DNA from: Scenedesmus sp. PABB004
Taxonomy: Eukaryota
Direction of reading: 5' to 3'
DNA: 64,000 bases
Assembly (NCBI GenBank): GCA_014905635.1
Contig: JABVCE010000019.1
Coordinates: 558,001 to 622,000, forward strand
Notes under the pieces: model-generated
Told to the model about the DNA's origin: nothing
Seen by the model: the letters and a program-made list of their open reading frames with translations, nothing else
Databases searched by the model: none
Part shown: piece by piece, positions 1 through 22,305 of the stretch
Layout: the number at the start of each line of letters is the position of its first letter
Numbering within the stretch: the first letter of the stretch is position 1
Translations under genes and position numbers: made by a program

Positions 1-914
1 AGGTGTACGAGCCGCTGCTGCTGGAGGGGAACGTTGACATTGTGATTGTGGGGCACGTGCACGCTTACGAGCGCACCAAGCCGCTCGCAGACTTTCAGGT
101 GGCGCCGCCGCGCGGCAGCTCACGCGGCTCCGTCGACAGAGTGCACTCGGCCGCTCAGCAGCGCGCGGCGCGTGGCAGGCACAGCCGAGCAGTCCTTGAC
201 GCCGCCACCGCCGTCGCCGCCGCTGCCGTGCAGGCGGATAACACTGGCTGCGCGCCAATGCACGTCACGATTGGTGATGGCGGCAACGTGGAGGGCATGG
301 CTGAGAGCTTCATCACAGGTGTGGGAGGGGTCGTGGAGGCGCGAGGCAGCTACAAAGGCAGTGACCCAGGCGCTTGCTCTCAGCCACGGCCTTGCGCTGG
401 GCGGCCTCACCGACGCCCGCCCGCGCCCGCCCCGCCCGCGCGCCCCACGCGCCATGCTGGTGCCCATGGCAGCCAACGGTAGCACCCCGAACTACAATTG
501 TTCCACGCCCGAGACTTACGCGTTTCCCTCGTACCAGCCACAGAGCTGCCTCACCTACCAGTCGGGCCCCGGCAGCGGCTGCGCTAACGACGCGCGCTGC
601 TTCTGCTACGCCAGCCAGGTGCGGCGCGCTCGCGCGGGCATGGGCTGGGGCCAGGCGGGGTGGCTGGCCGCCTGCGCCCGCCGCCCACCGCCCCACTCAC
701 ACCTCACCCCGCATCTCCCCCAACCCCTCGCCCACCTCCCAATTCCAAGCCGGCGTGGAGCGCATACCGCGAGCCGAGCTTTGGGCACGCCCGGCTGTAC
801 CTCAACAGCGCGACGAGCGCGGTATGGCAGTGGTTCCGCAACGACGGCGGCGTCATGACGCTGACAGATGAGGTGACCATCACGCGCGACCCGCGCTGCT
901 CCACTTCTGCCTAG
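1..914 (+). CDS. Purple acid phosphatase (PAP15/phytase-like), tandem copy 1; 3' exons only, 5' part outside the window
   Basis: Spliced exons read VYEPLL..GHVHAYER, HVTIGDGGNVEG, FCYASQ|PAWSAYREPSFGH; stop TAG 912-914; near-identical to copies 2 and 3. Confidence 0.9.
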
Positions 915-1624
915 CTCCCATCTGCCCGTCCACCCACATCACTGACTGTTACGGCAGACCATCAGGGGTGCTGTCGGGGCTTGTGAGGCCCGGCTCGTGG
1001 GGGGGGGGCATGGGTGGGGCTGCCGACGGGCTGCCTTGACAGGGCTTTGCACACCACGCAATATTATTGCGCGGCTCCCTCCCTTCCAGCTTGCTGCGCA
1101 CTTGCCTGGGGGCTGGCGGCATGTCCGGCCCAGGGCCCGGCCGCTTGAGGCCCGCGCGCTGATTTACGCACGCCGCAGCCGCACTCACGCGCGGGCTGTG
1201 ATTGGAGCGGAATCTGATCTTCTCTCCACGTCAAGCACTTGACACATCCGGATAGCTTGTGTAACAATGAACTCGTTGCTCGAGGGTCTGTGGCGGCGGC
1301 GGCGGCGGCAGCGGCAGAGGCGCAACGAGTCGCGCCGCGGCCGTCAACTCAGGCCCTGCGGTGACCCCTCCCGGCTGTGGTGCGCTCCTACCTCCCTCCT
1401 CCGGCGCCGTTGCTCACTCCCGCACCTCTGAACGCTGCACAGGCCGCGCACACGGCAGCGGCGCGGCAGCAGCGGCGACAGCTCACTCTTGCAATCCCTG
1501 CACGCCACAGCGTCCGGCCTGGCACGCCCGGCGCTGCACCTCAAAGATCATCGCGGTTGGCGCTTGGTGGCGCAGCTTGCGCAGCTAGCGCCGCAGCTGG
1601 AGCGTCGTGCTCACCGTCAGCAAG

Positions 1625-4600
1625 ATGCCGAGGGCCGCGGTGGCGGGCCCGAGCGTGCTCCTGGTCGCCCTGGCGGCGCTCTCTCTGGCGGGTGCCGTGA
1701 CCATCTCCCCCGACGGCCCACCGGCGCAGCGCGTGTACAACCAGAGCGGCGAGGTGTCGGGCGCTGTCCCCGAGCTCCCGTTCAACTACACGCAGACGCT
1801 GCCCAACGGCGTGACGCTGACCACCGTCAAGACCGCGCCCGGCTGCTCGCCCGAACAGGCGCGCTGGCCCCCCCGGAGCTGCGCGGCGCCGGGGGCGGCC
1901 GGTGACGCTGCTGCTGCTGCTGCTGCCGCTGCCGCCGCTGGCTGATGCGCGCCCCTGCTCTTGTGCAGGTGAGCGTGACGTTCTACGGCATTGACAAGAA
2001 CGGCTACGCCTCGGTGCTGGTGTCGTGGGCGACGTGCGACGCGGTGGTGAGCGGCTGGGCGTGGCGCGCGTGCGGCCGGCGGCGGCGGCAGCTGCTGCAG
2101 GCCGCACCTGCAGGCCGCGCAGGCGACTCCCCTGGCGCGCCGTGTCCCCGCATCCAGGTGCAAACCACGGCGACGTCTGCCAACTGCACGGGCCCAGCCA
2201 AGCCGGGCACAGTGACGGGGCCGCTGTCGACGCGCGGCCTCACGTCGCAGGTGCGCCTCCCCGGCATTGCGCGTTCTGCCGCTTGCGCCACCGCTGCAGA
2301 GGCAACCAGTAAGCGCACGGACCTTGCCGCTCACCGTGCCTGCCTGCCGGCACCTTTCCGCCCTCGCCGCCAGGTCTACTGGGTGGCCGCCGCATCCAGC
2401 CACGGCAAGACGCGGCTCTCGCAGGGCAACTGCACCTCCTACGTGACACGCTATGCTCCGCAGTATGATGCGATGGTGTACGCCAGCCCGCTGCTGCACC
2501 ACGTGCTGCTCGTCGGTGCGGCGCCTGCGCAGCGGGCGGCGCAGCGTGCGACGCATCGTCGCCCTCCGAGCGCGTGCTGCGCTTGGCCGCCGCGCCCCCT
2601 GCTGAGCCCCTGCTGCACCTCCATGCTCGCCCAGGCCTCAAGCCCGGCGTGCGCTACAACTACACCGTGGTGGACAGCGTGCTCGCGGCCAGCTCGAGCG
2701 GCAGCACGCCGCGCCCGCTCGCGCCGGGCGAGACCGGGCCACACCCCTTCTCTGGCCAGTTCATTGTGCGCAGCGCTGCGGGGGCCGGGCTGGGGCGCGC
2801 CCATGTCCCGCCGCGCCAGGTCGCCCGGTCGGCCGCGCGCACGCCAGCGCAATGCTCTCACTTGCTGCCGCCGCCGCTGTGCGCGCTCACCGTGCGGCCG
2901 CAGGCGCCCGGTGCTGCGCCCGGGGAGAGTCCCTTTCCCTTCCAGATTGGGGTCATTGGTGCGGGGCCGGGGGCTGGGGCTGCATGGGTTTGCAGCGCAA
3001 GCGGCTCGGCTCTGCGCCGCCGCTCGCGCTGCCCCACACTGCCGCTGCGCCACGCTGGCGCCGCAGGCGACCCCGGGCAGACCGCCAACACGACCACCGT
3101 GATGCAGCACCTGATGGCGCCGTGGGGCCTCACGGCACCGCGTCGCGCGTGGAACAAGGGTGGCATGGATCTGCTGATGATCCAGGGCGACCTCAGGTGA
3201 GGGGCATGGGCTCCACACACTACCGCGCTGTGCCGCTGGTCACGAGCACGCCTGCACACCAACCTGACCACCCGCCGCCGCCCACGTGCCGAACCGCAGC
3301 TACGCAGATCGCTCAGACCTGCCAGGAGTCACGCCGGCGGGTTGCAAGATGTGCAACGCCAGCGACACTCACGAGTTTGACTATGGCCCCAGGTGCGGCT
3401 GCCACGATTCACCTCAGCCTGCGCCGGCATGCGCGCTGTGCGCCGCTGCAGCCGGGGTCGTCGCGCCACGGACAAGAGGGTGCCCGCGCCGCGTCGCAGG
3501 TGGGACACGTGGGGCCGGCTGTTCCAGCCGCTGCTGTCGGCGGTGCCAACAATCGTGATTCCCGGCAACCACGAGGTCGCCTTTGAGCCCGACCCGCTGG
3601 TTGCGCCGATCGACATCCCTCTGCGCCAGGTCTGAGGGTGCTGGGGGCACAGGGTGTTTGCTGTTGTACCTCAAATCACAGCAGTCTCAGCGCTCAATCC
3701 TGTCTGCACTCCGCCACGCAGGCGACCTACAATGCACGCTACCCACAGGCGGTGCGCGGGCCACGCAACGCACCCGACGCAACGACGCTCGGCCCCGCGA
3801 CCTCCGCGACGCCCTGGGCCAACGCGTATTACTCGGTCTCCGTGCCGGGCGTCGCGACCTGGATCGGGCTCTCCAGCTACAGCCCTGCGGAGATTGCCAA
3901 CAGCAGCACCAGCAATGGCTTCACGAAGAACAGCGCGCAGTTCAAGTGGCTCCAGCGCACGCTCGCGGTGCGGCACACGCAGGGGGCTTTGACCCAGGGC
4001 GCCGCGCATTCGCTCGCGCCCCCGCCCCGCCCGCGCCCGCCGTGGCTGACCGGGTCAACCGCCGCCGCCGGGCGCGCCAGGCGGTCAACCGCACCGCGAC
4101 GCCGTGGGTGATTGTGAGCTTCCATGCGCCCTGGTTCAACACGTATGCCAACCACTTTAAAGAGAATGAGTGCATGCGCCAGGCGAGCGCACATGCGGCG
4201 TGGCCAGCGCGCTGAGGCCTGCACTGGCACGACCTGCTCAGCGCTCACCCCGTGTGCGCCGCGCCGCAGGTGTACGAGCCGCTGCTGCTGGAGGGGAACG
4301 TTGACATTGTGATTGTGGGACACGTGCACGCGTACGAGCGCACCAAGCCGCTCGCCAACTTCCAGGTGGCGCCGCGCGGCAGCTCACGCGGCTCCGTCGA
4401 CAGAGGGCACTCGGCCACTCAGCAGCGCACGGCGCGTGGCAGGCACAGCCGAGCAGTCCTTGACGCCGCCACCGCCGTCGCCGCCGCTGCCGTGCAGGCG
4501 GATAACACTGGCTGCGCGCCAATGCATGTCACGATTGGTGATGGCGGCAACGTGGAGGGCATGGCTGAGAGCTTCATCACAGGTGTGGGAGGGGTCGTGG

Positions 4601-5191
4601 AGGCGCGAGGCAGCACCAAAGGCAGACCCAGGCGCTTGCTCTCAGCCACGGCCTTGCGCTGGCCGACGCCCGCCTGTGCCCGCCCTGCCCGCGCGCCCCA
4701 CGCGCCTTGTTGGCTGCCATGGGCACATGGCAGCCAACGGTAGCACCCCGGACTACAATTGCTCCACGCCCGAGACGTACGCGTTTCCCTCGTACCAGCC
4801 GCAGAGCTGCCTCAGCTTCCAGTCGGGCCCCGGCAGCGGCTGCGCGGGCGGCACGCGTTGCTTCTGCTACGCCAGCCAGGTGCGGAGCGCTCGCGCGGGC
4901 TTGGCTCGGGCTGGGGCCAGGCGGGGTGGCTGGCCGCCTGCGCCTGCCGCCCCCCGCCCCACTCACACCTCACCCCGCGTCTCCCCCAACCCCGCCACCG
5001 CCCCCCAAATCCAACGCCCCCACCAGCCGGCGTGGAGCGCATACCGCGAGCCGAGCTTTGGGCACGCCCGGCTGTACCTCAACAGCGCGACGAGCGCGGT
5101 CTGGCAGTGGTTCCGCAACGACGGCGGCGTCATGACGCTGACAGATGAGGTGACCATCACGCGCGACCCGCGCTGCTCCACTTCTGCCTAG
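1625..5191 (+). CDS. Secreted purple acid phosphatase (PAP15/phytase-like), tandem copy 2, about 15 introns
   Basis: Signal peptide MPRAAVAGPSVLLVALAALSLAGA. All five PAP metal-ligand motifs appear after splicing: GDPG, GDLSY, GNHE, VSFH, GHVH. Also PEQ|VSVT and RWDTWGR; stop TAG 5189-5191. Confidence 0.93.
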
Positions 5192-5906
5192 CTTCCATCT
5201 GCCCGTCCACCCACATCACTGACAGTTGCGGCAGACCATCAGGGGTGCTGTCGGGGCTTGTGAGGCCCGGCTCATGGGGGGGGGGGGGGGATGGGTGGGG
5301 CTGCCGACGGGCTGCCTTGACAGGGCTTTGCACACCACGCAATTTTATTGCGCGGCTCCCTCCCTTCCAGCTTGCTGCGCACTTGCCTGGGGGCTCGCGG
5401 CATGTCCGGCCCAGGGCCCCGGCCGGTTGAGGCCCGCGCGCTGATTTACGCACGCCGCAGCCGCACTCACGCGCGGGCTGTGATTGGAGCGGAATCTGAT
5501 CTTCTCTCCACATCAAGCACTTGACACATCCGGATAGCTTGTGTAACAATGAACTCGTTGCTCGAGGGTCTGTGGCGGCGGCGGCGGCGGCAGCGGCAGA
5601 GGCGCAACGAGTCGCGCCGCGGCCGTCAACTCAGGCCCTGCGGTGACCCCTCCCGGCTGTGGTGCGCTCCTACCTCCCTCCTCCGGCGCCGTTGCTCACT
5701 CCCGCACCTCTGAACGCTGCACAGGCCGCGCACACGGCAGCGGCGCGGCAGCAGCGGCGACAGCTCAATCTTGCAATCCCTGCACGCCACAGCGTCCGGC
5801 CTGGCACGCCCGGCGCTGCACCTCAAAGATCATCGCGGTTGGTGCTTGGTAGCGCAGCTTGCGCAGCTAGCGCCGCAGCTGGAGCGTCGTGCTCACCTTC
5901 AGCAAG

Positions 5907-8900
5907 ATGCCGAGGGCCGCGGTGGCGGGCCCGGGCGCGCTCCTGGTCGCCCTGGCGGCGCTCTCGCTGGCGGGTGCCGTGACCATCTCCCCCGACGGCC
6001 CACCAGCGCAGCGCGTGTACAACCAGAGCGGCGAGGTATCGGGCGCTGTCCCCGAGCTCCCGTTCAACTACACGCAGACGCTGCCCAACGGCGTGACGCT
6101 GACCACCGTCAAGACCGCGCCCGGCTGCTCGCCCGAGCAGGCGCGCTGGCCCCGGAGCAGCGCGGCGCCGGGGGCGGCCGGTGACGCTGCTGCTGCCGCT
6201 GCTGCCGCTCGCCGCTGGCTGATGCGCGCCCCTGCTCTTGTGCAGGTGAGCGTGACGTTCTACGGCATTGACAAGAACGGCTACGCCTCGGTGCTGGTGT
6301 CGTGGGCGACGTGCGACGCGGTGGTGAGCGGCTGGGCGTGGGCGCGTGTGCGGCCGGCGGCGGCGGCAGCTGCAGGCCGCACCTGCAGGCCGCACCTGCA
6401 GGCCGCGCAGGCGACTCCCCTGGCGCGCCGCGTCCCCGCACCCAGGTGCAAACCACGGCGACGTCTGCCAACTGCACGGGCCCAGCCAAGCCGGGCACCG
6501 TGACGGGGCCGCTGTCGACGCGCGGCCTCACGTCGCAGGTGCGCCTGCCCGCCTTCTGCGTTCTGCCGCTTGCGCCACTGCTGCAGAGGCAACCAGTAAG
6601 ATCATGGACCGCGCCGCTTACCGCGCCTGCCTGCCGGCGCCTCCCCGCCCTCGCCGCCAGGTCTACTGGGTGGCCGCCGCATCCAGCCACGGCAAGACGC
6701 GGCTCTCGCAGGGCAACTGCACCTCCTACGTCACACGCTATGCTCCGCAGTATGATGCGATGGTGTACGCCAGCCCGCTGCTGCACCACGTGCTGCTCGT
6801 CGGTGCGGCGCCTGCGCAGCGGGCGGCGCAGCGTGCGACGCATCGTCGCCCTTTGAGCGCGTGCTGCGCTTGGCCGCCGCGCCGCCTGCTGAGCCCCTGC
6901 TGCACCTCCATGCTCGCCCAGGCCTCAAGCCCGGCGTGCGCTACAACTACACCGTGGTGGACAGCGTGCTCGCGGCCAGCTCGAGCGGCAGCACGCCGCG
7001 CCCGCTCGCGCCGGGCGAGACCGGGCCACACCCCTTCTCTGGCCAGTTCATTGTGCGCAGCGCCGCTGCGGGGGCCGGGCTGGGGCGCGCCCATGTCCCG
7101 CCGCGCCAGGTCGCCCGGTCGCCCGCGTGCGCGCCAGCGCGGCACTCACTTGCTGCCGCCGCCGCCGTGCGCGCTCACTGTGCGGCCGCAGGCGCCCGGT
7201 GCTGCGCCCGAGCAGAGTCCCTTTCCCTTCCAGATTGGGGTCATTGGTGCGGGGTCGGGGGCTGGGGCTGCATGGGTTTGCAGCGCAAGCGGCTCGGCTC
7301 TGCGCCGCCGCTCGCGCTGCCCCACACTGCCGCTGCGCCACGCTGGCGCCGCAGGCGACCCCGGGCAGACCGCCAACACGACCACCGTGATGCAGCACCT
7401 GATGGCGCCGTGGGGCCTCACGGCACCGCGTCGCGCGTGGAACAAGGGTGGCATGGATCTGCTGATGATCCAGGGCGACCTCAGGTGAGGGGCATGGGCT
7501 CCACACACTACCGCGCTGTGCCGCTGGTCACGAGCACGCCTGCACACCAACCTGACCACCCGCCGCCGCCCACGTGCCGAACCGCAGCTACGCAGATCGC
7601 TCAGACCTGCCAGGAGTCACGCCGGCGGGGTGCAAGATGTGCAACGTCAGCAACACGCAAGAGTTTGACTATAGCCCCAGGTGCGGCTGCCACGATTCAC
7701 CTCAGCCTGCGCCGGCATGCGCGCTGTGCGCCGCTGCAGCCGGGGTCGTCGCGCCACGGACAAGAGGGTGCCCGCGCCGCGTCGCAGGTGGGACACGTGG
7801 GGCCGGCTGTTCCAGCCGCTGCTGTCGGCGGTGCCAACAATCGTGATTCCCGGCAACCACGAGGTCGCCTTTGAGCCCGACCCGCTGGTTGCGCCGATCG
7901 ACATCCCTCTGCGCCAGGTCTGAGGGTGCTGGGGGCACAGGGTGTTTGCTGTTGTACCTCAAATCACAGCAGTCTCAGCGCTCAATCCTGTCTGCACTCC
8001 GCCACGCAGGCGCACTACAATGCACGCTACCCACAGGCGGTGCGCGGGCCTCGCAACGCGCCCGACGCAACGACGCTCGGCCCCGCGACCTCCGCGACGC
8101 CCTGGGCCAACGCGTATTACTCGGTCTCCGTGCCGGGCGTCGCGACCTGGATTGCGCTGTCCAGCTACAGCCCTGCGGAGATTGCCAACAGCAGCACCAG
8201 CAATGGCTTCACGAAGAACAGCGCGCAGTTCAAGTGGCTCCAGCGCACGCTCGCGGTGCGGCACACGCAGGGGGCTTTGACCCAGGGCGCCGCGCTGCCG
8301 CCCGTGCTCGCGCCCGCGCCCGCCTCCCACGCCCGCTGAACGCCGCGGTTGACCGCGTCAACCGCCGCCGGGCGCGCCAGGCGGTCAACCGCACCGCAAC
8401 GCCGTGGGTGATTGTGAGCTTCCATGCGCCGTGGTACAACACCTATGTTAGCCACTTCAAAGAGAATGAGTGCATGCGCCAGGCGAGCACGCACGCTGCA
8501 GAGCCAGCCAGAAGCTGCTGCTAACAGGCAGCTTGCACTGGCACGGCCTGCTCAGCGCTCACCCCGTGTGCGCCGAGCCGCAGGTGTACGAGCCGCTGCT
8601 GCTGGAGGGGAACGTTGACATTGTGCTCCTGGGCCACGTGCACGCGTACGAGCGCACCAAGCCGCTCGCAGACTTTCAGGTGCGCGACAACTCGCGCGAC
8701 GCTGCCGTCCGGTCGCACTGGGCCGCTCAGCGCGCGGCGAGCAGCAGGCAAGGGTGAGCTGCCTCGTTGACGCCGTTGCCACCGCCGCTGCGCAGGTGGA
8801 CAGGGGGGGCTGCGCGCCGATGCACGTCACAATCGGTGACGCCGGCAACGTGGAGGGCGTCGCGAGTGCTTTCATCACAGGTGAGGAGGCTCGCAAGGGG

Positions 8901-9456
8901 CCTGCCGCTGCTCTTAGCCGCGGCCTGGCGCCGGCCGCCCAACCAAAATCCCCCCTGCGCCCGTCGCCCGCCTCCGCCCTCGCTGCTCACACCGACGACC
9001 GCCGTGATGCAGCCAACGTGACCGGCCCGTATCTCAATTGTTCGACGCCCGAGACGTACTCCTTCCCCCCCTTCCAGCCGCAGCAGTGCTTCACCTATCA
9101 GTCGGGCCCCGGCAGCGGCTGCGCCGCCGACGCGCGCTGCTTCTGCTACGCCAGCCAGGTGCGGAGTGCTCGCGTGGGCTTGGCTCGGGCTGGGGCCGGG
9201 CGGGCGGGCGGCCGCCTGCGCCTGCCGCCCACCGCCCCCCTCACACCACCCCGCATCTCCCCCAACCCCTCGCCCACCTCCCAATTCCAAGCCGGCGTGG
9301 AGCGCGTACCGCGAGCCGAGCTTTGGGCACGGCCGGCTGTACCTCAACAGCGCGACGAGCGCGGTCTGGCAGTGGTTCCGCAACAATGGCGGCGTCATGA
9401 CGCTGACAGATGAGGTGACCATCACGCGCGACCCGCGCTGCTCCGCTTCTGCCTAG
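5907..9456 (+). CDS. Secreted purple acid phosphatase, tandem copy 3 (more diverged 3' half)
   Basis: Same exon structure and five motifs; ATG 4282 bp after the copy 2 ATG; stop TAG 9454-9456. Confidence 0.93.
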
Positions 9457-9648
9457 CTCCCATCTGCCCGTGCACCCACATCACTGACTGTTACGGGCTG
9501 TGATTCAAGCGGGCTGTGATTGGAGCTGATGCCGACCTTCTCGCAACAGCGAGTGCTTGCTGTTATTGTGTCAAGAGCTACCTGGCCGTTCGCAACCGGC
9601 TAGTGTGTGTGTGTGAAAAGACAAAGACAAAGATAGTTACACCACAGG

Positions 9649-9794
<146 letters not shown>

Positions 9795-10124
9795 TAAACT
9801 TGGCGCGTCCCGGACGGGACCACTCAGCATAAGATCACAGGAGCAACAGACCACGCGCAGGGCTCGAGATCAGAGAAGGCTGCATGCAGCCACCGATCGC
9901 GTCAGCATGTCCCCAGCGCGTTCAGTCAAAAAGCGCCCCATATTGACGGAGCCAGACAGGAGTCTATCAAAGCATCCGATCCCAAAAAATCTGCCCAGCT
10001 GCTGCCGCCAACGCCGCCGCCCGGCGAGCTCCCCCCGGGCGTCGCCGCCTGCCCGCGATTGCCGCGCGTGGCAGCGCCGGCTGGCCTCACCCCAGCTCGA
10101 GGTGGCGTCCCGGACGGCGCGGCC

Positions 10125-19330: not shown

Positions 19331-21294
19331 TCAGAACCCGCCCTTGTGCTTGCGCTTGCGCCCCGTGTACTTGGTGTCCACCGGGATGGCCGTGTAGCCC
19401 TTGCCGCGCATCTGGGCCTTCTTCTTCAGAATCCAGCCCTGCGCGACCGGCCAGCGGCGCGTGGTGCGCAGGGCCGCCCGGGCGCGCCGCGCCGCCACCG
19501 CCGCCGCCGCCACGGTCGCCGGCGCGCGCACCTTGGTCTTGAGCTGCGCGTCGCTCTTGTGTTGCTTCGGCTTCTTGCCGCGCCGCTGCCGCGCCTCCAG
19601 CCGCACCTCGCCCATCTCCTCGTCCTCGCTCTCTGCGCCGCGCGGCGGCGGCGTGGCGCGCGGCGCGCTCGACAACCCGTGGTGCACGTGACACACGCCG
19701 CCCCGCGCGCCGCCCCCTCTCGCCCCGCGCCGCGCGCCGCGTTCCGCCGCGCCGCCGCACCCGAGCCGGCGCCGTCGGCGCCGCGCGCCGCAGGCACGTA
19801 TGAGCTGGGGCCGACCATGAGTACGAGGAAGTACTTTTTGGCGCGCGTGGAGTGCGGGTAGTCAACGACCAGGCCGCCGGAGAAGCCGACCTGGGTTTGT
19901 GTGTGGGTGTGTGGGTGTGTGAGTGGGCGCGGCGTGGGCGCGGTGCGAGTGCGGTGTGGGCGGCACGGTGTCGGCGGCGGCGTGGGCGCGGCGCGCGCGG
20001 CGGCGGGTGCGGCGGGTGCGGCGGCGGACCTTCATCGCCGCGCCGACCATCATCTCCGCCTGCGCCGCGTTCTCAGGGTAAACCTGGGGGCGGGGGGGGG
20101 GGACCGGGGCGGGGACGGCGTGAGGCGGGACCGAGACCCCGGGCGCCACGCGCCTGCCCCTCGCCCTCCCCCTCCCGCCGCGGCCCAGCGCGGCGCGGCG
20201 CAGCGTCGGGGGCACGCGCCTGCAGCACCGCGCGCGCGCCGCGCGCGAGGCAGCGGTAGAGGCTCTCGAAGAACGCCTTGAGCCGGCGCCGCGGCTCGTG
20301 GCCGGTGCGGTCGGCGTTGCAGAGCCACTGCACAGCGGAGATGCTGATCGCGCCGTCAAACACGCCCTGCGCGGTTGGGGAGAAGGTGGGTGGAGGGAGG
20401 GAGAGGGGGGGGGGGTGCGAGCAAAGGTGGTGGGCCGCGGGCGGCGGCGGAGGGCCGCTCGACGGGCGCGCCGCGCCGCAGCCGGCGCCGGCGCCGCGCC
20501 GCACCGCACCTGGCGCAGCGGCAGGCCGTGGCCCATGTCCCCTAGCAGCACGTCGCCCTCGACCTGCCGGCGCGGCGGGCGCGGTCAGTGTTGCGCTGCC
20601 GCGCGGCGTGCCGCCGCGCGGCCGTCCCAGGCAGCCGCCGCGCCGCCTTGGGCAGCCCCCCCCCCCCCCCCCGCCCCGGGCAGCCGCCCCGCCACCCTGG
20701 GCAGCCGCCCCGCCGCCCTGGGCAGCCGCCGCGCCGCCCCGGGCAGCCGCCGCGCCGCCCCCCGCAGCCGCCGCGCCGCGCCGCGCCGCGACGCACCTCG
20801 CGCTCGACTGCGACGTCGAGCATCGCTGCGCTGATGTCCAGTCCCACCCACGCGTGCCCCGCGTCGGTCAGCGCCTCGCCGCTGAGGCCGCTGCCGCAGC
20901 CGATGTCCAGCAGCAGCCGCGGCGCCCCGTCCGGCGGCAGCGCGAGCAGCTCCAGCGCGCGCTGCGGGCGCGGCGGCGGCGCGCGGGGGCGTGCGCGAGT
21001 CGGCGCCGCACGCGCTGCGCTCCACGCCCTGCGCCGCACGCGCCGCGCCGCACGCGCTGCGCCCACGCCCTGCACCGCACGCGGCGCGCCCCGCGTGCGC
21101 CCTGCGCCCTGCAAGCCCTGTGCCCCCCTGCAAGCCCTGTGCCCCCTGCAAGCCCTGTGCGCCCGCGGCCGCGCCTGTGTGAGCTTCTCCTGAATCTCAA
21201 TCATGCGCGTGTTGCCGGTGTACTTTGCCGCCTCGGCCTCATTGTAAAAGATGTCCGGCGGCGCCGTGTGCTCCGGCCGCTCGCCCTTCCCCAT
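19331..21294 (-). CDS. BUD23: 18S rRNA (guanine-N7)-methyltransferase BUD23/WBSCR22
   Basis: [87 protein letters not shown]. Confidence 0.95.
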
Positions 21295-21332
21295 CGCGCC
21301 GCCGTGCCGCGCGGGCGGGGGCCCCTGGGCGC

Positions 21333-21850
21333 TCAGCTGCCGACGCGCGGCGCGGTGCCGGGGCGCGCCGCCTGCTGCGCCTGCTGCGCCTGCTGCGCCT
21401 GCGCGAGCGCTGCGGCCCGGGCCTGCGCGCGGCGGCGGCGGCGGCGGCGGCGGCGGGCCCGGCGCGGTGAGCCGCGCTGCGGCTGCTCGGCCGAGCGCGC
21501 AGCAAGCAGCAGCGGCGCGCGCCGCGTCGCCGCCGCTGGCTGTGCGCGGGCCGCCGCCGGCGGCACCTCTATCTCCTCGAGCTTCTGCAGCGTCACCGAC
21601 TTGAGGGGCAGGATCTTGGGCTTGCAGAGGAGCTCGGGCAGCCCGCCGACCTCGCTGACCACCAGGCCCGCCTTTGGCAGCACCTCCTGCAGCTGCGGCG
21701 CCGTCTGCGCGCCCCGCAGCGCGCCCCGCGGCACGGCTGAGATACGGGCCGGCCGCTGGAGGGCGCGCCGACGCGCCAGGGCCGCGCCGCGCGCGCCGGG
21801 GCGGGCCGCCGACGGCCTGCCCGCGCGCCGCGGCGCACCTGCTCAGTCAT
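21333..21850 (-). CDS. BBIP1: BBSome-interacting protein 1 (BBIP10/BBS18), 3 exons
   Basis: EVLPKAGLVVSEVGGLPELLCKPKILPLKSVTLQKLEEIE matches the BBIP10 signature EVLPKxG..LCKPKLLPLKSxTLEKLE; exon 1 MTEQ|GT; stop TGA 21333-21335. Confidence 0.85.
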
Positions 21851-22305
21851 GGCGCGCGCGCGGCGCGGGGACGATCATCGGGGCGTGGGGCAGCTGTCGG
21901 CGGGGCCTGCGAGGGGCCTGCGAGAGGGGCGCTGCTCCCGCTGCTGCTGCGCCGCCGTCGTGGTCTGTGGCGGCTGGGCTGCTGGTCGGGCTGGGCAGGA
22001 GAGGAGGCTCTGGTGGCGGGGACTGCGCTGCATACGCTCGCGCTGTTGCGCCGCCCGTGGCCGCCAGCCGGCAGCGTGTTGCAGCTGCCTGAGCCCCGAC
22101 CGCACCCCCGCACCGAGCGTTGAATCGCGCCGCCGCCCCGCACTGCTGCCGCCTACGCTAAAAAGAACACGGCCGCCGCCACTGCCGCTGCTCGGCCGTT
22201 CGCGCCGCCGCCGCCCCCGCCAGCGCCCCGCCTGCTGCGCCCCGCCTGCTGCGCCGCCGCCCCCGCCAGCGCCCCGCCGTCCTGCTGCGTCGCCGTGCTG
22301 AGAGC

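Follow-up and report, generated by a model that had tools for sequence, protein, structure and literature searches.

Two genes that lie almost head to tail on the minus strand of the window (the whole 64,000-nt stretch of DNA analysed here) raise the question of whether they share a single messenger and, if so, how ribosomes would gain access to the second coding sequence. The upstream gene encodes a predicted subunit of the BBSome, BBIP1, and the downstream gene a putative 18S rRNA methyltransferase, BUD23. The first-pass annotation had proposed a candidate bicistronic mRNA for this pair, leaving it undecided whether the combination had been described before. It has been, in the supplementary tables of a 2021 study (PMC7896298), and the window holds another copy of this known arrangement, in print since that year. 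Our analysis supports the bicistronic proposal: judged by its sequence and by analogy with other algae, the locus is probably the ortholog of a conserved green-algal BBIP1/BUD23 bicistronic locus, transcribed into one mRNA from which BUD23 would be translated by leaky scanning.

Gene models and identities of the two reading frames

BBIP1 precedes BUD23, both being on the minus strand with their ORF frames offset from one another. The model of the first gene consists of three exons, and is followed by a very short spacer.

21850-21839, minus strand: BBIP1 exon 1, a micro-exon (12 nt, four codons from the ATG), followed by a GT donor
21838-21705, minus strand: BBIP1 intron 1, 134 nt, GT-AG
21704-21567, minus strand: BBIP1 exon 2, 46 codons, holding the conserved BBIP10 core
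21566-21423, minus strand: BBIP1 intron 2, 144 nt, GT-AG
21422-21333, minus strand: BBIP1 exon 3, 29 codons and the stop codon TGA (21335-21333)
21332-21295, minus strand: inter-ORF spacer, 38 nt, with neither ATG nor TGTAA and of a length that is not a multiple of three

The three exons join into an ORF of 240 nt with a predicted product of 79 aa. The BBIP10 profile (PF14777) matched this product with 60.3 bits (E=1.4e-16; cut-off 26), positions 7-48 of the 64 in the profile corresponding to residues 4-46, encoded in exon 2, and an alignment of 25 sequences, with that of the window included, contained 17 invariant columns. A protein of 79 aa whose conserved core lies in the N-terminal half also fits the very small size of this family (about 55-130 aa), as most of the 424 homologues recovered at E<=1e-3 fall within 55-130 aa. 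A C. reinhardtii BBIP10 homologue of roughly 9 kDa was tabulated in 2009 (PMC2806276). The four-codon first exon with its GT donor recurs in three environmental loci (L001, L005 and L012). Intron 2 is divisible by three in length and contains no stop codon; in 41 of 150 BBIP1 homologues the ..ME motif is followed by V, which may represent read-through of a GT donor at the position of this intron. By family, ORF1 of the window is BBIP1/BBIP10, a BBSome subunit whose membership of the complex is predicted.

The second gene was modelled with eight exons.

21294-21175, minus strand: BUD23 exon 1, beginning with the start codon ATG (21294-21292) and followed by a GC donor
20961-20797, minus strand: BUD23 exon 2, with the SAM-binding motif of the methyltransferase fold
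20563-20510, minus strand: BUD23 exon 3
20366-20220, minus strand: BUD23 exon 4, followed by a GC donor
20083-20030, minus strand: BUD23 exon 5
19890-19761, minus strand: BUD23 exon 6
19632-19532, minus strand: BUD23 exon 7
19438-19331, minus strand: BUD23 exon 8, encoding the C-terminal WBS_methylT domain and ending in the stop codon TGA (19333-19331)

This model includes two GC-AG introns and gives an ORF of 879 nt with a predicted product of 292 aa. Exon 2 by itself matched Methyltransf_25 (31.2 bits; cut-off 27) and Methyltransf_11 (27.6 bits; cut-off 21.2), while exon 8 matched WBS_methylT (PF12589) with 45.1 bits (cut-off 21; E=1.8e-11). Furthermore, residues 1-287/289 of the 292 were colinear with annotated members of the family at 71-85% identity, the values being 85% for Tetradesmus deserticola, 81% for Hariotina reticulata, and 71% for both Cz16g20060 (P0160) and CHLRE_09g398104 (P0176). 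T. deserticola and H. reticulata are Scenedesmaceae, in the order Sphaeropleales, to which Chromochloris zofingiensis also belongs, and the 81-85% identity to these two species sets the window close to that family. ORF2 is BUD23/WBSCR22/RID2, a putative 18S rRNA guanine-N7 methyltransferase with a role in 40S maturation that is predicted from its family. The gene identities proposed in the first-pass annotation are thus borne out by the domain matches and the full-length identity, and the two gene models confirm the coordinates of the 38-nt spacer and the placement of both genes on the same strand.

On its upstream side, the BBIP1 ATG is separated by 455 nt from an APS-kinase gene on the same strand, and the spacer between BBIP1 and BUD23 is about a tenth of that distance. 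Apart from this APS kinase, a Pfam scan of nearby ORFs, the neighbour downstream of BUD23 included, gave no match.

The same pair in other green algae

The spacing of 38 nt agrees with the close spacing of green-algal polycistronic loci, for which median inter-ORF distances of 212-260 nt are tabulated, other colinear pairs having a median of about 3,300 nt (PMC7896298). The most informative counterpart is in C. zofingiensis, where Cz16g20050 (BBIP1) and Cz16g20060 (BUD23) are entered as exclusively polycistronic in the 'C. zofingiensis full' sheet, with 231 nt between ORFs of 225 and 876 nt that are not in frame (2021, PNAS; PMC7896298). The supplementary tables of that study also record the colinear pair with Iso-Seq support in C. 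reinhardtii (Cre09.g398102/Cre09.g398104) and D. salina and with EST support in V. carteri, give no pair matches for Coccomyxa, Micromonas and Ostreococcus, and include a BBIP1/BUD23 construct among those used for in-vitro translation (PMC7896298). The adjacency in other chlorophytes, which had been suggested as a check on the bicistronic proposal, is thereby documented in C. zofingiensis and in three more chlorophyceans.

The window and C. zofingiensis share the same genes in the same order and on the same strand, ORFs of similar length (225/876 nt in C. zofingiensis and 240/879 nt in the window) that are not in frame, and a TGA stop in BUD23. They differ in the inter-ORF distance (231 nt and 38 nt, respectively) and in the stop codon of ORF1, which is TAG in C. 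zofingiensis but TGA in the window. In addition, the start of the C. zofingiensis construct, as tabulated, shows ATG triplets inside ORF1 (PMC7896298), whereas the BBIP1 of the window has none. Co-transcription was measured in C. zofingiensis, whereas in the window it is predicted from orthology and from the 38-nt spacing. C. reinhardtii, which has the same pair in the same order, belongs to a different order of algae, and its locus is only partly polycistronic: it appears in the 'partial' polycistronic sheet, with an inter-ORF distance of 113 nt and ORFs of 258 and 873 nt (PMC7896298). A 2025 study counts both C. reinhardtii genes as monocistronic in its tabulated data and assigns a 5′ UTR of 56 nt to Cre09.g398104 (PMC11892635). 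Since a 5′ UTR of this length fits inside the 113-nt inter-ORF region, BUD23 has an independent start in at least one relative.

Among 80 environmental BBIP1 loci, BBIP1 was followed by BUD23 on one strand in three, L001, L005 and L012, of which L001 is the top tblastn match to the BBIP1 core of the window. Their inter-ORF distances (about 301 nt in L001, 107 nt in L005 and 74 nt in L012) are all ATG-free, and the internal ATGs of their ORF1 are in every case in-frame Met codons. Compared to the range of 74-301 nt in four other BBIP1-BUD23 loci, the spacer of the window is the most compact. The linkage is not general among BBIP1 loci: BUD23 was absent from 55 of the 58 environmental loci that have at least 1000 nt of downstream sequence. 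There was also no alternative recurrent partner downstream of BBIP1, as the 22 downstream same-strand ORFs at environmental loci without BUD23 included no methyltransferase; 19 had no Pfam match and the matches found were to amidohydrolase (two ORFs) and EamA (one ORF). The sequence-archive representatives P0008 (BBIP1) and P0163 (BUD23) share one value, 1323 nt, for their longest contig; if both lay on a single contig without introns, it would represent a bicistronic transcript from a further species. In the full-text literature, BBIP1 and BUD23 were mentioned together only in an unrelated clinical context, the pair itself being present only in the supplementary tables of PMC7896298, and 'polycistronic' was absent among the matches listed for the BBSome, BBIP10 and Chlamydomonas literature.

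In the window, BBIP1 and BUD23 stand in the order seen in Cz16g20050/60 and in the colinear loci of the other species. A bicistron is the best account of the locus because this ordered pair has been validated as polycistronic in C. zofingiensis, a member of the same algal order.

Possible routes to the BUD23 start codon

Transcription would most likely start in the 455-nt interval that separates the BBIP1 ATG from the APS-kinase gene, and would then traverse both genes to terminate past BUD23, giving one capped, polyadenylated mRNA. A scanning 40S subunit would meet the BBIP1 AUG first, and some of these subunits would initiate there to produce the 79-aa BBSome subunit, while the remaining ones would scan past it to the BUD23 AUG and yield the 18S rRNA m7G methyltransferase. 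With no other AUG in the spliced ORF1 or in the 38-nt spacer, nothing would hinder their arrival at this second AUG. Separate BUD23-only or BBIP1-only transcripts may coexist with the bicistron, as in Chlamydomonas.

The leaky-scanning step is borrowed from experiments on other algal bicistrons, for which the published mutational data describe a lower ORF2 output in vivo when Kozak/AUG mutations strengthen the ORF1 context or place an additional AUG before ORF2 (PMC11892635). The same study reports that such loci have short 5′ UTRs, ORF1 starts in weak contexts and a low number of AUGs before ORF2. The TOM22, OST4 and REX1S_REX1B bicistrons of Auxenochlorella protothecoides resemble the window in having a small ORF1 and a short inter-ORF distance (14 nt in REX1), and the output of ORF2 in these bicistrons is set by the start context of ORF1; in TOM22, the ORF and the inter-ORF region lack an AUG, as in the window (PMC11892635). 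Unlike the window, they involve other genes in another algal class, and no overlapping upstream ORF is described for them in the sections of that paper devoted to these loci.

The ATG content of the locus is consistent with such a mechanism. Between 21850 and 21294, the only ATG triplets are the start codons of BBIP1 and BUD23, so that the claim in the first-pass annotation that no ATG follows the BBIP1 start in the spliced ORF and spacer is correct, and applies equally to the unspliced sequence. The start contexts, gccATGA and gcgATGG, were likewise given correctly: BBIP1 reads ..GCGCC ATG A (G at -3, A at +4) and BUD23 reads ..GCGCG ATG G (G at -3, G at +4), and with G at -3 in both, any contrast between a weaker ORF1 and a stronger ORF2 context would lie at +4 alone. 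We rejected ATG depletion as statistical proof, however, because comparable stretches arise by chance. The window DNA is ~80% G+C, and zero ATG was obtained in 17% of mononucleotide shuffles of the unspliced 553 nt and in 23% of those of the spliced 275 nt. Moreover, where the window is rich in G+C, 5-7% of all ATG-to-ATG gaps span at least 556 nt (minus strand, 19 of 270; plus strand, 16 of 300). Support for a depletion of ATG comes instead from non-Met residues at two positions that are usually Met. At the ..ME motif that ends exon 2, where 91 of 111 matched homologues have Met, the window has Ile (ATA), and at another position, where Met occurs in 78 of 141 homologues, it has Leu. Replacement of Met is also seen elsewhere in the family: 13 homologues have Leu and 7 have Ile among the 111 matched at the ..ME position, and of the 141 at the other, 59 have Leu and 4 have Ile.

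Another argument for the bicistron had been that the spacer contains no TGTAA-like signal. TGTAA is indeed absent from the spacer, but this is uninformative, since the signal is rare across the window (12 copies in 64 kb; the minus strand has none from 9641 to 30841) and is also missing from the 3′ flank of BUD23. With the signal nearly missing from the whole window, we rejected its absence as evidence for a bicistron.

The pair could also represent two overlapping transcription units brought together by compact-genome packing, with BUD23 transcripts starting from the spacer, BBIP1 exon 3 or intron 2, polyadenylation of BBIP1 inside the 5′ part of BUD23, and bicistronic RNA that is absent or minor. 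We consider this unlikely. It would accord with the tabulated status of the C. reinhardtii locus as only partly polycistronic (PMC7896298), with the later treatment of that pair as monocistronic and the placement of a 56-nt BUD23 5′ UTR within 113 nt (PMC11892635), and with an ATG-free stretch that is compatible with chance. On the other hand, a poly(A) site, a promoter and a 5′ UTR could hardly be accommodated in a spacer of 38 nt, and the pair is tabulated as exclusively polycistronic in C. zofingiensis, which is of the order of the nearest relatives of the window, and is supported by Iso-Seq or EST molecules in three other species (PMC7896298). The gene order and the ATG-free inter-ORF regions are, in addition, kept in the three environmental relatives. 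Far less probable still is a fused protein, made either by read-through of the BBIP1 stop or by a splice from the phase 0 donor at 21566, after BBIP1 exon 2, to the phase 0 acceptor at 20962, before BUD23 exon 2. Such an alternative splice would keep the frame, and the high G+C content leaves many frames open; it would nevertheless remove the conserved first 40 residues of BUD23. Read-through cannot yield BUD23, since the frames differ across the 38-nt spacer and the BBIP1 frame meets a stop at 21201-21203. No BUD23 part was found in any of the 150 best BBIP1 homologues, and no BBIP1 part in any of 8 BUD23 homologues, among them the longest from green algae, P0152 (397 aa) and P0215 (353 aa), whose excess length is due to intron read-through and to an N-terminal extension, respectively.

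A candidate upstream ORF across the BBIP1 start, and what the locus would mean

Two ATGs that the first-pass annotation does not mention lie upstream of the BBIP1 start, at 22033 (-183) and at 21878 (-28), and the nearer one opens a short reading frame.

21878-21843, minus strand: candidate upstream ORF, 11 codons, out of frame with BBIP1; stop codon TGA (21845-21843)

This ORF stops 8 nt into BBIP1, and it would be of no relevance unless transcription begins upstream of 21878; should ATG 21878 lie within the 5′ UTR, plain leaky scanning would not be the whole story. An out-of-frame upstream ORF extends across the BBIP1 start in all four BBIP1-BUD23 loci compared (the window, L001, L005 and L012), and in both the window and L001 its ATG is exactly at -28 and its length is 11 codons. 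At BBIP1 loci without BUD23, an overlapping upstream ORF was present in 2 of 33 (Fisher p=2.3e-4 versus 4 of 4), in a comparison that is post hoc and based on small numbers from distant lineages, with control ORF1 starts that were called automatically. The product of the four shuffle expectations for such an ORF is 0.0025. As far as the accessible literature shows, the overlapping upstream ORF is apparently the only element of this locus that is not in print.

In eukaryotic translational control, a short out-of-frame ORF overlapping a main AUG can divert ribosomes past that AUG. The situation in the window would differ from that of regulatory overlapping upstream ORFs in that the diverted ribosomes would reach a second, unrelated coding ORF. 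One mRNA could thus serve BUD23 mainly through reinitiation, either after termination at the end of BBIP1 or after the 11-codon upstream ORF (21878-21843). In favor of this route are the presence of the overlapping ORF in 4 of 4 BBIP1-BUD23 loci against 2 of 33 controls and the AUG-free stretch of about 270 nt of spliced RNA between the upstream-ORF stop and BUD23, a spacing that favors reinitiation after a short ORF. Reinitiation after the 79-codon BBIP1 is by contrast expected to be inefficient, as ribosomes would have only 38 nt to reload, and in L001, L005 and L012 resumed scanning would meet the internal Met codons of BBIP1 before BUD23. Against it stand also the post hoc nature of the upstream-ORF comparison, with its small numbers and distant lineages, and the short 5′ UTRs tabulated for algal bicistrons (medians of 83 and 54 nt; PMC11892635), which mean that the upstream ATG may fall outside the mRNA. 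The in vivo tests reported for other algal bicistrons likewise argue against reinitiation as the main route (PMC11892635). We regard it as quite improbable in that role, and leaky scanning past the BBIP1 AUG remains the reading we prefer.

A third, regulatory frame, which we rate as rather unlikely, would give the upstream ORF the part of a switch, with ribosomes bypassing BBIP1 and reinitiating at BUD23. If this were true, the ratio of BBIP1 to BUD23 would be set by leaky scanning together with upstream-ORF bypass, and it might respond to conditions that change the efficiency of reinitiation. The window would then be the cleanest case, because its ORF1 and spacer have lost every other AUG.

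The locus also bears on annotation. A 79-aa upstream ORF is prone to be missed by automated gene calling, and the Chlamydomonas copy of BBIP1 is marked as 'added in v5.7' in the supplementary tables (PMC7896298). In DNA this rich in G+C, automated models of both genes also tend to be wrongly spliced, and recognition of the bicistron would lead to correct models, including the two GC-AG introns of BUD23. The combination of the shortest spacer with the absence of internal AUGs is consistent with selection on leaky scanning. The locus would add one more lineage that keeps two unrelated functions, cargo transport by the BBSome and maturation of the 40S subunit, on one messenger.

Gene models of the BBIP1-BUD23 locus

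We assembled the gene models for BBIP1, which encodes a BBSome subunit, and BUD23, which encodes the 18S rRNA methyltransferase, from the minus strand between 22400 and 18800.

21850-21839, 21704-21567 and 21422-21333, minus strand: the three exons of BBIP1, separated by two GT-AG introns of 134 and 144 nt
21294 (ATG) to 19333-19331 (TGA), minus strand: BUD23, eight exons
20962-21174 and 20084-20219, minus strand: GC-AG introns with CAG/GCGCG.. donors, two of the seven introns of BUD23

The BBIP1 product is 79 aa long and ends at a TGA (21335-21333), and its exon 2 alone matched the Pfam family BBIP10 (PF14777; 60.3 bits, cut-off 26, E=1.4e-16). The coding length of BUD23 is 879 nt (292 aa); its exon 2 scored above the cut-offs of Methyltransf_25 and Methyltransf_11, while exon 8 matched WBS_methylT (45.1 bits, cut-off 21). 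The spliced BUD23 model could be aligned to full-length homologues across residues 1-287/289, with identities of 85% (Tetradesmus deserticola, a transcript-derived protein), 81% (Hariotina reticulata) and 71% (both Cz16g20060 and CHLRE_09g398104). These full-length alignments (84-85% for the best, one of which is transcript-derived) fix the exon boundaries, including those of the two GC-AG introns, near which no GT donor giving the conserved BUD23 protein was found. In a genome this rich in G+C, GC donors may occur unusually often.

BBIP1 intron 2 (21423-21566, minus strand, 144 nt) and BUD23 intron 1 (20962-21174, minus strand, 213 nt) each have a length that is a multiple of three and contain no stop codon, so that retention would keep the frame. 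Two database homologues (P0152 and P0155) are clear intron read-through predictions, and we grouped with such predictions the V that directly follows the exon-2 end in 41 of 150 BBIP1 database matches. By eye, short direct repeats rich in G+C fill most of BUD23 introns 1 and 2 (repeats at 21020-21170 and 20610-20790, minus strand; unit length roughly 19-25 nt), and a run of about 17 G lies near 20655-20672 on the same strand. The upstream same-strand neighbour of BBIP1 is an APS (adenylylsulfate) kinase gene (22306 to about 23667, minus strand; Pfam PF01583, E=1.3e-37 and 3.4e-10 for two ORF pieces), whose TGA (22308-22306) lies 455 nt from the BBIP1 ATG.

Spacing and ATG content between the two starts

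The same-strand arrangement with 38 nt between the BBIP1 stop and the BUD23 ATG (21332-21295), reported in the first-pass annotation, is borne out by both gene models, and the start contexts it gave (gccATGA and gcgATGG) agree with the sequence. Its claim that no ATG lies between the two starts also holds, spliced or unspliced, since the only ATG triplets in 21850-21294 are the start codons themselves. In this region of about 80% G+C, the ATG-free stretch exceeds chance only weakly on sequence alone: shuffles were free of ATG in 17% of cases for the unspliced 553-nt stretch and in 23% for the spliced 275-nt stretch, and ATG-to-ATG gaps at least this long made up 19/270 on the minus strand and 16/300 on the plus strand in the window's G+C-rich part. 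The G+C content of the window rises in a step, from 66-72% in 1-10000 to 73-83% in 10001-64000.

The spacer was also said to lack TGTAA, described as the usual chlorophyte poly(A) signal (PMC7896298). This is true but carries no weight as evidence, because TGTAA occurs only 12 times in the 64 kb on both strands, is missing from the minus strand throughout 9641-30841 and is likewise absent 3' of BUD23; this alga may use an alternative poly(A) signal. The weight is carried by two features, the 38-nt spacing (compared with 455 nt to the APS kinase gene) and the comparison with relatives.

The gene pair in other algae and in environmental sequences

Whether the pair had been described was left in doubt by the first reading; it is already in print, in tables that supplement 'Widespread polycistronic gene expression in green algae' (PMC7896298). 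These tables place Cz16g20050, with a BBSome subunit 10 domain (BBIP1), and Cz16g20060 (BUD23) of Chromochloris zofingiensis in the 'C. zofingiensis full' polycistronic sheet, with ORFs of 225 and 876 nt in different reading frames and an inter-ORF of 231 nt, compared with 38 nt in the window. The adjacency proposed as a check was found in further chlorophytes, Iso-Seq being listed for the colinear pairs of C. reinhardtii (Cre09.g398102/Cre09.g398104) and Dunaliella salina and EST for that of Volvox carteri (BBIP1 ORF unannotated), and the conservation table has no entry for the pair in Coccomyxa, Micromonas or Ostreococcus. The C. reinhardtii locus, with an inter-ORF of 113 nt against 38 nt in the window, stands in the 'partial' sheet as partly polycistronic, and a later mechanistic paper lists both Chlamydomonas genes in its monocistronic sets, with a 56-nt 5' UTR for Cre09.g398104 (PMC11892635). 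A BBIP1/BUD23 construct appears among the in-vitro translation constructs of PMC7896298, the locus being unnamed in the main text, and full-text literature searches returned nothing relevant on the pair in article main texts. Since the closest BUD23 proteins with a named source come from Scenedesmaceae (Sphaeropleales, Chlorophyceae) and C. zofingiensis belongs to the same order, the simplest view is that the window holds the ortholog of a known locus in another sphaeroplealean alga, one with very high G+C, and this orthology supports the bicistronic interpretation.

Scanning metagenome contigs with a BBIP1 alignment matched 247 stretches. Confirmation succeeded for 197, the best 80 were retained, and BUD23 was sought around the latter by tblastn with the window's model. 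It lay downstream on BBIP1's strand in 3 of the best 80 loci (L001, L005 and L012) and never on the opposite strand; among the 58 with at least 1000 nt downstream (a manual table count), 55 lacked it. These data indicate that the linkage, as judged from these loci, is lineage-restricted. All three loci contain introns, have a G+C content of 57-61% and share a four-codon first exon with the window; their inter-ORFs of about 301, 107 and 74 nt, respectively (301 and 74 by manual reading), are all ATG-free, and the only ATGs inside their ORF1 encode Met in frame. The ..ME motif at the end of exon 2 has Met in 91/111 matched homologues and Ile (ATA) in the window, and a second BBIP1 position has Met in 78/141 and Leu in the window. 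A loss of ORF1 Met codons in the window is suggestive only, as both variants are also found elsewhere. The window holds the most compact, AUG-free form among the BBIP1-BUD23 loci compared.

In three environmental BBIP1 loci without BUD23 (L021, 1584-3899; L060, 4362-6713; L032, 739-1839), 183-299 nt separate BBIP1 from the following ORF on its strand, which codes for a protein with an amidohydrolase domain in two cases and for an EamA transporter in the remaining one, so that the close neighbours of BBIP1 differ between lineages. For a 75-aa BBIP1 (P0008) and a 284-aa BUD23 (P0163) from Logan assemblies, the longest contig is 1323 nt in each case, which would fit a single intron-free bicistronic transcript.

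Translation of BUD23 and a candidate upstream ORF

We consider it probable that the window locus gives a bicistronic mRNA translated by leaky scanning, with room for extra monocistronic transcripts as in Chlamydomonas; co-transcription in this organism would follow from orthology. A single mRNA would be produced from both genes. Part of the 40S subunits would initiate at the AUG of BBIP1, which has G at -3 and A at +4, and the remainder would scan on through 278 nt lacking any AUG until they reach that of BUD23, with G at both -3 and +4. In other algal bicistrons, ORF2 output moved inversely when the ORF1 start context was mutated in vivo and fell when an AUG was added upstream of ORF2, which points to leaky scanning as the main route and away from IRES activity and reinitiation (PMC11892635). 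Reinitiation at BUD23, including bypass through an upstream ORF, is accordingly improbable in our estimate.

Independent overlapping transcription units, for which the Chlamydomonas data speak, are somewhat less improbable but still unlikely given the short distance of 38 nt, the data from C. zofingiensis and the conservation of inter-ORFs free of ATG. A fused BBIP1-BUD23 protein is very improbable. Read-through cannot produce one, since the two ORFs are in different frames and that of BBIP1 meets another stop at 21201-21203.

The leader of the putative bicistronic mRNA may hold a further element. An ATG at 21878, 28 nt 5' of the BBIP1 start, begins an ORF of 11 codons in another frame (21843-21878, minus strand) that stops 8 nt inside BBIP1. 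In L001 (465-500), an upstream ATG likewise lies at exactly -28 and opens 11 codons that end at the same place, with no relation between the encoded peptides, and out-of-frame ORFs crossing the ORF1 start begin at -65 in L005 (about 3801) and at -61 and -91 in L012 (about 72-102). An overlapping upstream ORF was thus present in 4/4 BBIP1-BUD23 loci compared with 2/33 distinct single-exon BBIP1 ORFs without BUD23 (Fisher's exact test, p=2.3e-4), a post hoc comparison in which the controls come from distant lineages with automatically called starts. Shuffles of the upstream 70 nt gave such an ORF in 10-35% of cases per locus (product 0.0025). As far as could be seen, this ORF is absent from print. 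Should this candidate ORF prove genuine, BUD23 could also be reached by a bypass-and-reinitiate route.
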